Source: Yuukianura sp. NJ FZ-2021
Lineage: Eukaryota
Reading direction: 5' to 3'
DNA: 64,000 nucleotides
NCBI GenBank assembly: GCA_046563655.1
Contig: CM102284.1
Location: forward strand, 3,038,001-3,102,000
This document shows, in pieces, positions 3,001 through 20,861 of this stretch. The notes below the pieces were generated by a model. That model ran no database searches. It was not told the origin of the DNA and saw only the letters and a program-made list of their open reading frames with translations. The translations under genes were made by a program, and so were the position numbers. Position 1 is the stretch's first letter, and each line of letters opens with the position of its first letter.

Positions 3001-3890
3001 TCACCCACTACCAACCTGGAAAAGCGTACAAACTTTGTTCCGCAAAATCGGCAAAACGAGTAGTCACTCACTAGTATACAAAATACAAAGGAAAGAAAGT
3101 TTCCTTGCAAAATGCTATTAGCTAATAGACAACCCGCACTTGCTTAGATATCCGCAATACTTCCAACTACCATCGTTCTAGTATCTTACAGCAGTAATTT
3201 CAGTAGTTTAATCTTACCGTCAGGATCAAAGGTTTTGGTCACTGAATCCTTTGCTAGCATTCCAGCTTGATGACGCATGAGACTCTGAGTTGGGTTCAAA
3301 ATCAAACATGCCCCCATTACCACTGCAGCATCACACCTTCCCGTCTGAATCGCTGTAACGGCAGCATCCAAAGCAAAAATACTTGATGAACACGCCGTAT
3401 CGTAACTTGCACTCGGACCGTGGAAGTCAAAACAATACGAAATCCGATTCGGCAGCATCGTACCGAGTGACCCAATCAAGTTGGCTCCATCCATTTCCTC
3501 AGCAGAGCGACTCCAGAGGTCAAGAGCCTCGTGGGAAATGATTGCCGTGAATACGCCTGTGCGTGACCCGCGTTTTTCGACTGGATTAATCCCAGCATCG
3601 AATATGGCCTCATACGTCGTCTCTAGTCCAATTCTTAGTTGAGGATCCATTTGCTCCACTTGCTTAGGTAGAAAGCCAAAGAAGTCTCCATCGAACCTAT
3701 CAATTTCCTTGAGTGTGCCAAATCCCTTTGGAAGTCCATAGAGACCGGATTTGAAGCGACGATTATTCGAGGTCACGAGGTCACGGCTTTTAAGTAAGTT
3801 GGAAATAAATTCCTTAACGGAACTTGACTCGGGAAATCTACCCGATATGCCTGAAATTACTACTTCTGGAAGACGCTGCTTGTTTTCCAT
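1..3890 (-). CDS. FASN: Type I animal fatty-acid synthase / FAS-like PKS, 5' part (ketosynthase domain); continues beyond the window start
   Basis: Exons 3890-3218, 939-464, 364-149 and about 80-1, with GT-AG boundaries. KS motifs are GISGRFP, DPQLR, DTACSSS (catalytic Cys), EAHGTGT, KSNMGHAEGASG and NCFGFGG. Confidence 0.9.
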
Positions 3891-4157
3891 CCTGGAATGC
3901 TTAATGTACTAAACTGAACTGTAACAATTCAAAATTTCCATAAAGAATTGTGAAAACAGAGGAAGTATTTCAACTTTTCTTTTGAAATCTTGGCAGGGGT
4001 CAACTTATTGACTTCGAGGTCACCTTAAACATGCAACAGCAAACTGAACATGCAGGAAGTTCGGCAAAATATAGTAACATAGACAAACCTGTTTCTTCCT
4101 AACTGGTAATGAGGAGGAAGGAAGATGAAAAACAAAGTTGTAACGATAATTATTTTT

Positions 4158-7113
4158 TTAATTGTTTTGATTCAAGTTCAGCAAAATTTTACAATAATTC
4201 AGAATTTCAGTTTGAAATGATATGTTACGAATAGCTGCAATGAATTTATAGTACTTTGTCCTCAACTTTTTTTTCAATTTCGTGTTTCGTCTTTGCTCAA
4301 ATCCAAACTGAAAAATCGCCAGCAAAACGCCAACACAAAATATAATGAAGATTGCTACCAAATTTGTGTTAAAAGAGAGTGGAAACCATTTTTTTGAAAA
4401 CTGTTCATCCCTGTTCATCCTCTCCCATCGTTTTCGTAAAGCTTTCAAACTCAGCAATTGCTGCCAATAATTAAACAAACCGGAGAAGTAGAGCGAACCA
4501 ATTCTGCTTTGATACGATTCGGTTTCCCATACCCACGGGACATCTTCCCGCGAAATTTCAATTGTGTAAGGAGACGAAAAAAGCGTCTCGGTTCCAAAAT
4601 ACACAAAAGGATTCGTGAGGCGACTCGCCATTTCCTGCAATGCTCTTCCTTTATCAACGAAAATTCGATTCTCACATGGCTGGGATGCGTTGAAATCATG
4701 TTCGCCTAATGAATACGGGAAACCGTGGGGCAAGGTCAAAGCATTCCCGAGTCTGCGCGCCAGATCTCTCTCTTCAGCATTATTGGACAGATTCTCCGCC
4801 GCATCTAAATGGTATTTGAATTGTGCTGAGTGAAGATGTCGCGTGTAATTCTTTGTATGCTGAGGATGAACCAATTTGTCAAATATCGCCCATGATTTCG
4901 CTTCCAGTGGCATTCCTGGGACGATAGCGTAGTTTTTCTCAAGGGCATCTCTAAACGTGGTTATTCTGTCAGGTTTCAATGGCTCCGTTGCTGTTAACAC
5001 TGATTTGTAAGTATTCGTCAAAATCAACGCAAAAACAAAGTATGGAATCATTAAGGTGCCTATTACTTTCAAGCGCAAAAGCTTGTCTGAAATTTGTGTC
5101 ATTTCTAGCAACGGAGCCATCAGAATGAAAACAATTGGGTCATGCTTCAAATTTTTCTTCTTGAAAAATAATTCAAAAATCCCCGCCAACAAAACGCAGC
5201 TACAAGCAACACCAATCCAGAGTTCTGGCTTGAACGGACTAACATAGAAGAGAAATGAAATTTTTCGTTTGTGCTGGTCGTCGCAAGCAATAAACCCGAA
5301 GGGTTCTTGCTCCATTTGCAAAATGTACATTGGCCATTGCTTCCAATCTTTCCAATCTTTTTGCAAAAATGCGGCACTGTCAAACGTTAAGAATCCCCTG
5401 TCTTGTATAAATGGGAAATGTTTTGATTTTTCACGAAGTTGTATATAATGAGAAATAAACTGTGAGCCACAGATTCGATAGGAGAGTAAATCGTTTCGAT
5501 GGTAAAATGAACCAAAAGTTGATCCGGTATAGTTGTGAATGTACGAAATCAAAAGTTCCGCTATGGAAATTTTTCCTTGTGCTACTGTTGCACTCAGGCT
5601 TAGCAATTGACGGAGGTTTGCTGCTGATGACCTCATGAATCCGCAGTGCCCTTTGACGTTGTTGATTCTCCAATACCCCAAAGTTTTGTTTCTGATGAGA
5701 CTCATGTGCCTGTCGTGAATGACTTTGAGTGACCCCCAACCAGTCAATTTCGTTCGTGACATTTCTTGGCGACCCATCGTAGGATATTCCATATCTGGAA
5801 AAAAATATTCGGCTTGAAGCTGTTGCGTAGCACCGAGTTGAATGATGAGGAACGGAAGGCGGCCAATGCTCCATAGAACGTGTATTTTTTCGTTCCTAAG
5901 GAAACTAACTTGTGTCCAATTCCATGTCACATGAATAAGGTGGGTGTGCAAGGAGTAGTGGGTCCTTTCAAAGATGGAATCTGTTTTGGCATTTTCGCGT
6001 CCTGAGTCACAAAAATTGAAAGCGGAAAATTACGACGCTGGATTATTAATTTTTAAATGTATTCCGCGCTTGGAGTTGTGTTTCAATAAACATGCGATGA
6101 TAGCACAAATGGTTGATGTCGATCGTAATTATATTGCACGCTCTGGTCTAACCCATCACAACCATTCAACTCTCCTAGCGCGTGGTAACCTTGAGCATGC
6201 ATGGGAATTATTTTTGATTTTAAAAAACATGATTATTGTAAACCCCCAAGGTGTCTTGACAACAGAAAACTTTTTCTTTAAAGCCCAATTTGTAACCAGT
6301 TTTCCTAGGCAACGATTCCTATCGATATCCAACGATAGGAGAAGTTTGTCGTAGAGCGAAAATAAAATAAATTTTTTAAAGAATCTTATGATTTCATATG
6401 ACATTAAAAGTTCTACGACAAACATTTCCTAGCAAACGTTACCTGGGAAAACCGCGTATAAATTGGGCTTATAGGCAATACGCTAGGCTAGGCTAGGCTC
6501 GTGTGTCATTTTGTTTAGTTGCCTTGAGAAAAAGCCTGTTACAGAAAAAGTATTTGCATTGATCAACCCCTTTACAACGCTAAATTTCCCTAATTTAAAT
6601 TCGCGCTAGAATTTCCGTTTCAGCTCACCTCGTAATGAGGAATTCAATTTCCCGCTTAACGAGTAAAAGAAGTTGCTGCTGACCTGTTGCGTAGAGTAGA
6701 AGTTTGGCCTGAATCCATGGATGACGATTAGCCGCTAAGTGACGAATGGGAGTGCTGGCTTGGACAAAAGCACATCCCACAGAGATTAGAGCCAAGCAAC
6801 GCATTTTACTCAGATAGTGTGATCCGAAGTTTGGCGCCGGTCGATTGTACATTCCCAATGCCGGAAACTTTTCCGATACTGTGTAATTCTTGACCAGAAC
6901 CACTGGAATTTCCAACGGGAACTCAACACGTTTTGCTATGTGAATGTGATCCACCGAAATTACTTCAATCCAACATTTTTCAAAGACTTTCAATACTGGA
7001 GCAATGCATAACTCCTCCGGTTCTGATCCCATTGACTGAAAGACTAAAAAGTACAAAATTCCGACAAAAGGAAGAAATCTAAAACCAAACTTTTTGGGGC
7101 TAACCACACCCAT
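4158..7113 (-). CDS. Divergent ionotropic receptor (IR/iGluR-like) chemoreceptor, 763 aa, 2 exons
   Basis: Exons 7113-6629 and 5964-4158 join in frame (AG|G). There is a hydrophobic N-terminus, an SPF..ELW pre-M1 segment, an M3-like 'LILTNTYKSVLT..P...ITTF.D' segment and an M4-like 'PLS...LVAIFIIFCVGVLLAIFQFGFE' segment. Confidence 0.65.
6281..6470. mobile_element. Degenerate MITE-like element in the IR-gene intron
   Basis: Left arm AAGCCCAATTTGTAACCAGTTTTCCTAGGCAACG matches the reverse complement of the right arm, AAGCCCAATTTATACGCGGTTTTCCCAGGTAACG. Confidence 0.7.
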
Positions 7114-14316: not shown

Positions 14317-16224
14317 ATGGTTCAACTAAACGATCAACCAGAGTCAGAGTCTAAGGACATGGAGGGTGACACACAGCCGATAAGTTACGCATATGCTGAT
14401 GCAGAAGAAGAGTAAGTGAATCCAAATTATAATGTTAATTTAAGAATGAATTTTGGAAGTTGTGTTAACGAATAGTTGTACATTGTACGTTAGCTATGTG
14501 GCTTTCTTTTAGAACGCAAGAGGTCAAGGTATTCTCCGATGTTAACCTGCAGATAACCAATAACGCAGTATTGAAACCGAATCTCGAGAGAAATGGAACT
14601 GAACTTAATGATAAAGAAGATGACATCGAAATTCTTGAAACTCCACCGAAGCCACCACCTATTATGGTAGATCTGGAAGACGGAAGCGACGCGGAGGGTG
14701 GACATCGCGATGACATTGCTAATCCAGCGTCACCGGCATTATCCGCTGATCTACTGTCCCAGACGGTTCGTGTCAATTTAGGAACAACTCGTTTTTATTC
14801 CGTTATTCATCTTATTAGTTCAATTATTACTTGGTTTATGTTTTGTAGAATTCGGACGATGAAGCCGACACGCAAATGATGATTACGCAAACGTTTTTAA
14901 TACCTGAGACTATTTTGGAGGATTCCAATGATACTTTGATGGACCAAACTCGCCCTAGCAGCTCAACTCGAAGCGCAGACTCTGATTACGAGTCCCAGCC
15001 CGAAACCAGCAAGGTTTCAACTCTTTTGAAACTTTGCTATGAAGTAGTGAAAGCCAACATTGAACGTTTTGAATTTATCCGTCCCGACGATGATGAAACC
15101 TCCGAGAATGGTTCCCGCAAGACATGGCGTGACGTTTACAATGCAAGTTAACTGTTTGATTGCATTTATTCGATTTCGAAATTCAAATTTCAAAATTGAA
15201 ACAAACTTAATTTGCTTTCAGAGACTTGTAGCTGATGCTAACTTCAACACGAATGTTCCTCGCGACTCGGCCACCACTGAATTGGTAAGTAAGAATTTAT
15301 AAATGTTAATGTTGGAACATTTCGTGCACTGATCCTCATTTTTTTTTAAATAAAAGTCCACGGTGCCGGCCGGACCATGTCGAAACCTAAGTCAACCGTC
15401 CACTTCCAGTAGTTCTACTGCTACTATTACATGCCAAGGGGATACTACCGATTCGAATGGACACCGTAGTGACATCAACGCTGACCGGCCTACCACTTCC
15501 ACGTCAACTAGGAATGCTCGTGGAAGGGCACCCACTCAGCCCACCAAGGATATTCTAGTAATTACACTTCCCTGTGATTCTCCTCCACCTTCTCCTCCGC
15601 CATGCGCACCTTACACTGCAATTGGACGTTCAATTTCCAACGAAGTAGTTACATTCCAGGAGAACTGTTACCGGGAAATTCGAGAATGTATCAACAAGCT
15701 GTGTAAGGGAACTCATCAGGTCCCATCTGACAATGTAAGCTTTATTTTTTGTAATCCAAACTGAAACGAAAAATGAATGGAACGACGAAAGAATGTTTGC
15801 TGACTTTTAGACTCTAACGATGCTCTCAATCGAAATGCCTGTAACCTGGACCGAGATGGGAAAAATTCCAGGGATGTCGGAGCGTACCCGTTTCATTTAT
15901 TGGCCCGCCGTTTTAAAAATCACCAAGCGATATCGAAGCGAGAAGTTAAAGTTCTACAAGACTTGCCACTTTCCGACGACGCTTCAACAAGCCAAGGACT
16001 TGTGCTCAACCGAGACAAGTAACGGACGCAACAGAAAAAGAACCAAGGCTAAAAGAAATCGTGCTGGCAAAGGAAAACAAGCTGAAGAAGCGATGAGTAT
16101 TGTCACCTCAGACTCAGAGGATGAGTCGGCTCGTAGCGATTCTCCGGCGGTGACATCGGCATCGCCTCCAGCGAAACGCACCAGACGAGCCAGAGCATCC
16201 AAACCAACCGCATCAGCAGACTGA
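14317..16224 (+). CDS. Uncharacterised ~498-aa largely disordered protein with a BC-box/Elongin-A-like motif, an HRDC-like domain and a basic NLS-like tail
   Basis: Exons 14317-14411, 14513-14765, 14849-15142, 15222-15284, 15357-15734 and 15811-16224 give one open frame, using one GC-AG intron. The start codon is uncertain. Confidence 0.65.
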
Positions 16225-16588
16225 GATTCTTCCAGTTCTAATTAATTTGTATTTACCGCGACTTTGCCGCCGCGATTTTCGCATTCATATCAAACAACAA
16301 TCAGTTGTTTTATTTTGATACTTCTTCACCTTATGACGCTGAAGCAATATTTTTGAAACTACGGTATAATCTCGCACTTGATTGGGAGGTAGTACTGTAT
16401 TAAATTAATTTTGAGAACAAGTTAAACTCATTCTGTTTTTTCCTTGCCTTCTTGACATGATCACTGGAGTTAAGAAGATTTAAAAATTTAAGTTGCGGTT
16501 ACGTTTAGTAAAACTGTTGGCTTCGTCAGACGAAGCAATCTTTTGAAAAATGATTAACTTTGTGGGTCTTAAAATTTTCGCCCAGTCA

Positions 16589-17666
16589 TCATTTTCTTTC
16601 CTCACTTTCAGCTGGAGAAATTCGGCCAGCTTCTACCGAATAGTCGTCAGGAGAAGGATCGACTCCACCGCTCTGTTTATAATGTCGTCGGATTTTGGCA
16701 CTGGTAGCTTCTCCACTGGCTATTTCTCCGCTCTGCGGTTCAAGTTCTAAAACGTTCAAAATATTTCCCTAAAGAAACATGGTTGGCAATTCAATATACT
16801 GAACTAACTGAAGCCACTTCTCACCCAAACTCGTTGTTGCTTCAGCAGGTTCTGCCGGAGTTGTATTCGCTGGAGCTTTGTTGGCGTCACACTTCTTTGG
16901 CCGCTCCACAAAGTACTGGAGGTAGCCCCATGCTGGACTGTCTGCAGGAACAATTCCAGCCGTGAAATCAGCGAATTCTGCCACCGTTGGAAATTGACAC
17001 TGAGTCTAAAAAACAATAAAGGTTAATCAGCATTAATTCACCCAGCATCAACAAAGTTTACTTACGTTGTACGGATCGTGTCCAATACATTTGCATGCTC
17101 TCCTGTCAAAATCGCAAACTCCTGTTCGTGCTCCATGGTTGCATTGACAATCCACCACGCAAAGCTCACGGAATTTGCCTGGAAATTGAACAAAATCGTT
17201 TTCATTTTTTAAACTGGAAGATTTTGCTTAACTAAACAACACATCTATCTGGTCTGTGCTTACCCAAAGGTGCAATACAATGAAGTGATTTCTCTACTCG
17301 TGCTGAAATGGAATTTTCAACATTTCAAACATCAGTTTTAAACATCCACGACAAATCGAACTTTGCAATTTTTACTTACCTCCTTGGAATCTTCCGCAAT
17401 AGCAGTTGAAATCTCCTCTACCCGGCGGTCCGCACATCCCATCAGCAGCGCCATGTTGATAGATGCAGTCATCAGAGCAAGGAAAGAACGTTTGATTGTT
17501 CTCTTCACTGGCCGGACACAAGAAGCTTGGATACCCACCGAAAGCAACTGAAAATTAAAAACAAAGTTAACAATAAAGCTACTTCTAATATGTTAACTGC
17601 TAAGTATTAAATGAACTTACCGTGGGAAAAGGAAAGCAGAACGATTATAACCAGTGGAGTGTCCAT
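16589..17666 (-). CDS. Secreted cysteine-rich protein with two tandem CSαβ (defensin/scorpion-toxin-like) domains and an acidic tail, 234 aa, 6 exons
   Basis: Exons 17666-17621, 17547-17380, 17302-17264, 17178-17066, 17005-16825 and 16746-16589 are all GT-AG with consistent phases. A signal-peptide-like MDTPLVIIVLLSFSHVAFG is followed by two C..CxxxC..GxC..CxC units. Confidence 0.8.
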
Positions 17667-18185
17667 TGCTGCCAAAAACTTAAAAATCCCTGAGAAACGT
17701 TTGAATACTCCGAGGATAGACGACCCACCTCCATTTTTATAATTTCTGAGAACATAAGAAAAAAACGGATAACAAGAAATCAGTCCACTAACGAACCCGA
17801 ATACGCAGATACGTTGACCTCATGAAATCATGGCATGGCGGTGACATTCGATAAATCCCCAAAACTAAATTCTAAATGCTGGGATTCCAGAATATCTAAA
17901 GAGCGTTAATGTTAACTAATTAACCACTTTTCAAAAAGATTAGCAGCAAGACTTAAGTAAAAAGTTTTTTTTTTGCGGTTAAAGTTATAACATTTGCAGG
18001 ATTAGTAGATCTCTTGAAATAACCAATAGGGAACCACATAAGATTTGAAAATTTATTAAAAGACAAATCACATTCAAGACAGCGTAAAATGAACTTTGAA
18101 CGCTATTGTCTTGGTGGTACCGTATTTCACGGCGTATAGGTCGCATTCGCAGCCAAATATAATTTTTTGGGTATTAATTATAACT

Positions 18186-19123
18186 TTATGCAATGGTGTA
18201 TCCTCCATCGACGGCAACTGCCTCTCCAGTAATCATCGTAGCACCAGGACTTGCAAGAAACAAAACCAGATCTGCCGTTTCCGTGGCCTCCAACAACCGA
18301 GGAATCGGAGTGTTTTCAAGGAATTGGTGCGCAAAGCCTTGAAACGCTTCATCTGAGTAAGTCTCGAACAGGGTTGTACGCATCACAGTGGGTCTAACAG
18401 CGTTGACGCGAATGCCGAGCGATCCCAACTCTACGGCCAGACACTTTGTCATCATGGTCACAGCCGCCTTGCTGCAACAGTAGGCCAGTGCACCAGGAGC
18501 AACTTTCCGATCTAGCTGTAAATATATTAAAACAGCATAACACTTGGCTCTCATTTGATACATTTTGATACATTCATATTTACCACTGAAGAGATGTTCA
18601 CAATGCAGGCTCCCTTGACACCGTTGGTGGTCACGCTTTTGGCAAAGATTTGAGATGTGTTTACCAATGCTTTGACGTTGATTCCAAATACACTATAAAA
18701 CAGACAAACAGGACTTACATACAGGTTCTAAAAATTATTGTAACTTTGTCATAAAATGTAACGTTACAAATCGAGCTGCTCCTCGCTGACTTCTGGAACG
18801 AATTCCTCGCTGAGTACACCGGCATTGTTGATCAAAACGTCCAATGGTCCCAGTTTCTCCATTTCCACTTTCACAGCCGCCCAGTCCAGCATATCCAGTA
18901 CCACTGTAGTGACTCCTGGGAGATCACTTTTCAGCTTTGCAAGAGCCTCGACATTTTTGTCCATGACAACAACGGTAGCATTAGCCGCTACAAACTTATC
19001 CACGATGGCTCGTCCCAGGCCTAAAATACAAAATACTTTTAAATCCTGCAACCAGTGACACGCAAATCAAAACTTACCTTTGGCTCCGCCTGTTACAAGG
19101 ACACGCTTCCCGGTAAATGCCAT
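18186..19123 (-). CDS. DCXR: Classical short-chain dehydrogenase/reductase, L-xylulose reductase (DCXR)-like
   Basis: Four exons. Motifs are MAFTGKRVLVTGGAKGLG, LINNAG, IVNISS, YCCSK (YxxxK), 'IRVNAVRPTV' and 'ITGEAVAVDGG'. Confidence 0.8.
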
Positions 19124-20089: not shown

Positions 20090-20861
20090 TTGGGTAATTC
20101 CACCACAAGAAAGCCAAACGTTTGCGCTTCAATATTTCAAAAACAAGTAAAAAATTCCAAAATGCATTAACCGAACGTTTTGGAAGTGCGTAGTATTTTT
20201 TTTAATTTTCTTAAAACTAATTAACTTGTTTTTTAATTAAATTTAAAAAGTGACTTTGCTGTCAAAAATTGCAAAAAATGTAAACAAACAAACGGGAGGT
20301 CGGGGGATTTCTAAAGCTCACCCCATGTGGTTGCACCCACATTGGGAATACGAAACCTACTGTATTTGGACACCCCAAGTGTGCTGAATCTAATGGTATA
20401 GGTTTCGTATTCCCAATGAGAGTGCAACATGGAAAAAAAATTTTTTGAAAACGGTGAATTTTGAAATTTGTCGCTGGAGTTGGAAAAGGAGTGGACACCT
20501 CTGCTCCACACCGAGCTAGGGAGTGGGAGGGTTTTTCAGGGTGCGCTGCTGCAGTAGCATTCGCAGAATTGGTTTCCGTCCCACTTTTAGCGCTATGACA
20601 CTTATGGTATACTTTCAAAAATTAGATGTAACATAATTAATGATAGTTAGTAGTAAAATACTAACTTTAATTAGAGTTAAAACAGAAAAAATTGAAATGT
20701 AAACAAGCACCTCCACATTACGCGCCAAAGTGAAAAAACATTTGTGGGAGTGGGGTGGGTTGGCGGTGTGTGGCGTGGGGTTTGGATTGGGAGGACGCTC
20801 AGCTCCAAATGAGAAAAAATCCCAACTCAACTTTTGGCTTTCTTATGGTGGAATCACCCTA
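20090..20861. mobile_element. Non-autonomous DNA transposon (Tc1/mariner-like TIRs) with an internal hairpin
   Basis: TIR TTGGGTAATTCCACCACAAGAAAGCCAAA compares with the reverse-complemented right end TAGGGTGATTCCACCATAAGAAAGCCAAA. An internal 30-bp inverted repeat lies at 20330-20359 / 20399-20428. Confidence 0.75.

Follow-up and report, generated by a model that had tools for sequence, protein, structure and literature searches.

The window analysed here is a stretch of 64,000 nucleotides (nt) of Yuukianura sp. NJ FZ-2021 DNA (contig CM102284.1; G000:C2:3038001-3102000), which belongs to a genome of 98.7 megabases (Mb) in 22 contigs. The minus strand of the window carries a gene for a protein with two dissimilar cysteine-rich modules, A and B, both of which have the framework of cysteine-stabilised α/β (CSαβ) proteins. 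The open frame of 705 nt encodes 234 amino acids followed by a stop codon and is divided over six exons:

Exon 1, 17621..17666, minus strand: start codon, followed by the greater part of the predicted signal peptide.
Exon 2, 17380..17547, minus strand: module A with six cysteines, acidic; its first loop contains an N-glycosylation sequon.
Exon 3, 17264..17302, minus strand: 39 nt long, phase 1-1; last part of the 13-residue linker, then Cys1 of module B.
Exon 4, 17066..17178, minus strand: core of module B, which includes an extra cysteine two residues past Cys3.
Exon 5, 16825..17005, minus strand: eighth cysteine of B, predicted C-terminal helix and 15th cysteine, then a Pro/Thr/Ala-rich tail.
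Exon 6 (likely), 16589..16746, minus strand: acidic low-complexity tail, KIRR and stop codon.

All five introns (73, 77, 85, 60 and 78 nt, in this order) have GT-AG borders. The methionine in exon 1 is the only one in frame as far back as the upstream stop codon, and a TATA-like TATAAAA is found near 17740, by exon 1. The predicted signal peptide of about 19 amino acids, judged by eye, is encoded by exon 1 and the start of exon 2. A metagenome scan gave 73 pattern matches, two of which, L013 and L014, are genomic loci, and in both the phase 1 intron after exon 1 is placed identically. L014 is the syntenic orthologue, with the orthologue of the convergent neighbour gene on the same side. Its introns match the positions of introns 1, 2 and 4, and exons 3 and 4 are represented by a single exon. 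In exons 2 to 5, 102 of 140 aligned residues are identical between the two loci (36/50 in exon 2; 9/12 in exon 3, which is contiguous there with the equivalent of exon 4; 26/37 in exon 4; 31/41 across the first 41 codons of exon 5). The same exons differ at 77.2 of 87.3 synonymous sites and at 54.8 of 332.7 non-synonymous sites (Fisher p 1e-36), an excess of synonymous change that indicates strong purifying selection on an old gene. The alignment with L014 confirms exons 2 to 5 of the gene model. The tail of L014 is also acidic but different, lacks intron 5 and KIRR, and has no detectable similarity to exon 6 (shuffle p 0.61). With a small Markov model trained on the open reading frames (ORFs) of the window, exon 6 appears coding-like in the predicted frame only (0.178 bits/nt, compared with a maximum of 0.086 among 298 non-coding windows), and an AATAAA lies past it at 16314 on the minus strand. 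Exon 6 is therefore a likely part of the gene. The spliced six-exon gene proposed in the initial annotation is thus secured for exons 2 to 5 and likely, by coding score, for exon 6.

A scan for CxxxC..GxC..CxC in all six frames of the whole window returned exactly two sites, modules A and B, and none in any of 30 block-shuffled windows; the two cysteine domains described initially are present as written. Both modules follow the framework C1..C2-x3-C3..C4..C5-x-C6, in the case of module A as C-x12-C-x3-C-x10-C-x9-C-x-C. The first spacing is C1-x12 in A and C1-x10 in B, and Cys1 of B, encoded by exon 3, is confirmed by L014. A glycine two residues ahead of Cys4 is present in both modules and invariant in alignments A9 and A10, and a D-C..H-G signature is common to A and B. 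The three additional cysteines noted before were also found, two of which occur family-wide. One of these follows Cys3 of B and is invariant in all 12 rows of alignment A12; it likely pairs with the eighth cysteine of B, and this fourth disulfide would tie the C-terminal helix to the module. The 15th cysteine is shared with L014 only, so that the total number of cysteines is odd. The predicted structure of the relative P0015 contains helix-strand-strand twice and a further helix at residues 171-187, and the window protein is likewise predicted to fold as two CSαβ domains with a C-terminal helix. It is likely secreted and likely glycosylated. The two frameworks, the Gly-x-Cys4 motif, the two family-wide cysteines and the fold predicted for the relative all agree with the postulated secreted protein of CSαβ type, with two domains and additional disulfides, and the first domain is indeed acidic: the core of module A has a charge of -5, and summing over the exons yields about -9 for the mature chain.

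The toxin-like function suggested in the initial annotation is not supported. A scorpion-type ion-channel toxin would be consistent with sub-threshold matches to the Pfam families Toxin_3 (PF00537; module A, 16.8 bits, curated cut-off 21.5) and Toxin_31 (PF08119; 16.8 bits, curated cut-off 25) and with the tick protein FS50 and scorpion toxins among the fold matches. However, every Pfam toxin score remains below its curated cut-off, none of the 16 relatives reaches any such cut-off (the best relative scores 21.1 of 21.5), and the best fold matches are mostly defensin-type proteins of plants, fungi, nematodes and insects, together with one tick protein. The Atlas scores of 0.83-0.84 are lead-level, with plant defensins tying with toxins, and the family shows neither expansion nor fast evolution. 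Springtails are not known to be venomous, and a toxin is considered highly improbable. A two-headed protease or amylase inhibitor, using the CSαβ scaffold in the manner of plant ATTI-type inhibitors, is improbable as well: the best sequence match of the B profile in the PDB is the trypsin inhibitor ATTI-2, but this match is not significant (E 0.61), and in the alignments the first loop lacks a conserved, basic residue of P1-like kind.

A profile of module B, searched against 1.84 billion representatives, retrieved 11 proteins, of which eight keep the framework and three were dropped. All named relatives of the window gene are proteins from springtails, and fused A+B relatives occur in Orchesella and Folsomia; P0016 is Orchesella dallaii CAL8143764.1, and P0019 clusters with Folsomia candida XP_021946282.1 (P0020), both of them unnamed or uncharacterized. 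Subfamily 1 is formed by P0015, P0016, P0018, P0020, L013, L014 and the window gene. Its members combine a module A with six cysteines, a cysteine-free linker and a module B with the extra cysteine after Cys3; the eighth cysteine and the helix-like segment behind it are found in all members except L013, whose 3' end lies outside the model. The linker measures 13-14 residues in all seven members, five of the seven A cores have the sequon in the first loop, and one subfamily-1 copy was found per genome. Core charges across the family range from +1 to -5 in A and from +3 to -3 in B, and the family is accordingly not cationic. Two relatives contain B without A: P0010 has two extra N-terminal cysteines and a long insert, and in P0013 (282 amino acids) B is followed by another cysteine-rich region. 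Six near-identical copies of a long ORF matching the cysteine pattern (L027-L030, L032 and L033, on contigs C2, C3 and C7) were rejected as family members and represent a dispersed multi-copy element.

The paralogue search recommended in the initial annotation was carried out with module B and led to two loci on contig C7 with stand-alone A and B genes:

L005:663-1832, C7 near 1.148 Mb, A and B on opposite strands: head-to-head A/B pair.
L004:1284-2528, C7 near 6.176 Mb, A and B on opposite strands: head-to-head A/B pair.

Neither these split versions nor the conserved family had been noticed in the initial annotation. The start codons within the pairs are 389 and 310 nt apart. Since the two genes are encoded on opposite strands and the A genes stop directly past the last cysteine motif, A and B must be separate chains here; the B genes have their own signal peptide and the same phase-0 intron ahead of the eighth cysteine. 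Compared with each other, the two pairs have synonymous differences (pS) of 0.78 and 0.90, which is near saturation, and non-synonymous differences (pN) of 0.34 and 0.27; for the last B exon, the difference between synonymous and non-synonymous change is not significant. The intergenic stretches have a single 11-mer in common, located near a start codon. At L005:1-440 (plus strand), the end of a gene that is presumably otopetrin-like converges on the stand-alone A gene.

The A and the B profile, each made from separate exons, find one another (E 4e-5, probability 70%), which suggests that the modules go back to an ancient internal duplication. In trees calculated from short alignments, with long branches in that of A, subfamily 1 is set apart for both modules from a second subfamily (99/99 and 93/94) that comprises the split C7 genes as well as the fused members P0011 and P0014. 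A recent fusion of C7 genes as the origin of the window gene was rejected. As fused members exist in both subfamilies, gene fission is the simpler assumption: the fused form would be ancestral, and the C7 pairs would have arisen from it.

In both C7 pairs, the A chain has seven cysteines and the B chain nine, with signal cleavage judged by eye. The spare cysteine of A is located at the centre of the helix motif, that of B in the region equivalent to the linker of the fused forms. Fused P0011 contains the helix cysteine and the linker cysteine in one chain, P0014 has two linker cysteines and no helix cysteine, and the window protein has neither. Altogether, a helix cysteine is accompanied by one linker cysteine in 3/3 units, and its absence by none or two in 8/8. 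In the CSαβ fold, the middle position of the CxxxC helix points away from the sheet, and a cysteine at this position would thus be free to link a partner. The C7 chains may be linked again through a disulfide that connects the spare helix cysteine of A with the spare linker cysteine of B, whereas the window protein would hold A and B together by the peptide linker. We tentatively propose a springtail two-module CSαβ machine in two interchangeable builds, either a single chain or, after fission, a disulfide-linked heterodimer from head-to-head genes with a shared promoter, whose composite A/B surface would recognise one conserved target. Several points weigh against the heterodimer: the three units with odd cysteines have common ancestry, the odd cysteine total of P0011 is due to cysteine in its tail, one of the C7 B genes has a cysteine at the predicted cleavage site, and the B-only relatives P0010 and P0013 exist.

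A precursor from which cleavage of the linker sets free two independent defensin-like peptides, which the C7 genes would make separately and whose odd cysteines would be homodimeric or free, would agree with these B-only relatives. Dibasic pairs are present in the linkers of three of the seven subfamily-1 members (P0015, P0016 and P0018), and the linkers of the window protein and L014 contain a single arginine. However, the 13-residue linker of the window protein has no dibasic site, no such site occupies a common position, the linker length is fixed, the odd cysteines come in matched pairs (3/3), and A stays beside B at both split loci; this alternative is judged improbable. The precursor with a basic site envisaged in the initial annotation is a weak interpretation: KIRR does exist, but in the non-conserved tail of an acidic mature chain.

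That A and B belong together is suggested by the fixed linker length, by the continued pairing of the split genes and by the spare cysteines, which are matched. Membrane lysis by charge is unlikely for a protein that is acidic, conserved and non-expanded, and a specific, conserved target fits better. A and B thus likely form a single defence unit that binds a target, as opposed to a peptide that lyses membranes or a toxin, an explanation that, taken as a whole, is offered with somewhat less than even confidence. Least certain is the idea that the target may be a surface molecule of microbes, most likely of fungi, which comes solely from what most CSαβ proteins do; a microbial target is likewise given somewhat less than even odds. 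Alternatively, the same A+B unit could be secreted as a ligand or matrix protein without microbicidal action, with a host partner as its target in signalling, reproduction, the cuticle or the gut lining, which is rather unlikely but fits the acidic charge, the sequon in five of seven A cores, the purifying selection and the one subfamily-1 copy per genome. In the accessible text of the respective papers, X-tox proteins do not undergo processing into active defensins (PMC2728511), and acidic or neutral defensin-like peptides of fungi differ from antibacterial ones (PMC5234102). X-tox proteins no longer have killing activity, nor do many defensin-like peptides of acidic charge, and no kB sites were found when these were looked for. 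In other animals, however, the CSαβ scaffold is mostly defensive, which speaks against this alternative.

Further genes were observed around the locus. A fast-evolving multi-exon gene at about 14470-16224 (plus strand) converges on the CSαβ gene and is about 30-37% identical to its syntenic orthologue at L014; poly(A)-type signals at 16399 (plus strand) and 16314 (minus strand) would make the 3' untranslated regions of the two genes overlap. Directly upstream, on the same strand as the CSαβ gene, lies a gene at about 18186-19100 (minus strand) that we take to be short-chain dehydrogenase-like from its motifs. A short stretch at about 20247-20535 recurs inverted, with the same peptide word in ORFs of both strands, and is possibly a small inverted-repeat element. 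On the minus strand, 452-982, 3186-3908 and 4158-6029 hold what are presumably exons of ketosynthase-like character, from a synthase of fatty acids or polyketides, and a long ORF in one exon that is similar to divergent ionotropic receptors.

With the CSαβ defensin superfamily (plant defensins, brazzein, drosomycin, heliomicin, nematode ABF and copsin), the window protein shares, in both modules, the six-cysteine framework and its CxxxC, GxC and CxC motifs, as well as the predicted helix-strand-strand arrangement and weak sequence and fold matches. It differs from this superfamily in its two dissimilar modules per chain, its acidity, the D-C..H-G signature, the extra cysteine pair and C-terminal helix of B and its Pfam scores below every cut-off; classical arthropod (Collembola) defensins are net cationic as mature peptides. 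Springtail CSαβ peptides have been described as Collembola defensins in Sminthurus viridis, and the accessible part of that study gives them a single domain, a length of 63-72 residues and the motif C1-X5-6-C2..C4-X7-C5 (PMC10051947), whereas the window protein has 234 amino acids, two modules and a longer first spacing. The same part of the survey reports defensins in one of five springtail species, suggests loss in many lineages and lists none for Orchesella cincta, so that the family described here went unreported in it, although its supplements could contain further candidates (PMC10051947). The CSαβ scaffold thus persists in springtails in a form missed by homology searches, and this form is strongly constrained in two or more families of springtails. 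An orthologue-type gene (LOC110844397) exists in the laboratory species Folsomia candida, in which the function is directly testable.

Like the window protein, X-tox proteins of Lepidoptera are arthropod proteins that are secreted and carry CSαβ motifs in tandem, with, in the accessible text, no conserved cleavage sites; they have 3-11 motifs with variable spacers, a cationic member (Spod-11-tox) and the consensus C-x4-C-x3-C-x7-G-x-C-x3-K/R-C-x-C, and are given for Lepidoptera only (PMC2728511). The family described here, with named relatives in springtails, has two specialised modules, other charge, longer loops and a linker of fixed length, and it includes split forms. The plant bi-domain defensin MtDef5 similarly joins two CSαβ domains by a short linker; according to the text available, it is highly cationic and consists of two defensins of 50 amino acids with a 7-residue linker (PMC5700942), whereas the window protein is acidic and has a 13-residue linker, an extra helix and a tail. 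Bizyarsin of fungi is another multi-domain CSαβ protein (PMC5234102, accessible part). The analogue of the C7 pairs, for which no homology is claimed, is the scorpion LVP1 alpha/beta, whose two CSαβ chains dimerise via one spare cysteine each (PMC10721645), as present in the C7 A and B chains. The LVP1 chains are related to Na+-channel toxins, and the accessible sections of the paper describe neither a fused single-chain form nor head-to-head genes (PMC10721645). If the C7 pairs are covalent heterodimers, they would be a natural experiment in which an interchain disulfide replaced a peptide linker, and one of the rare cases in which the defensin fold acts as an obligate hetero-pair. Our literature search found no description of the family or of a CSαβ pair that is both fused and split. 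Multi-domain CSαβ proteins and dimers formed through spare cysteines are already known, and the new aspect is a CSαβ pair that occurs fused or split.
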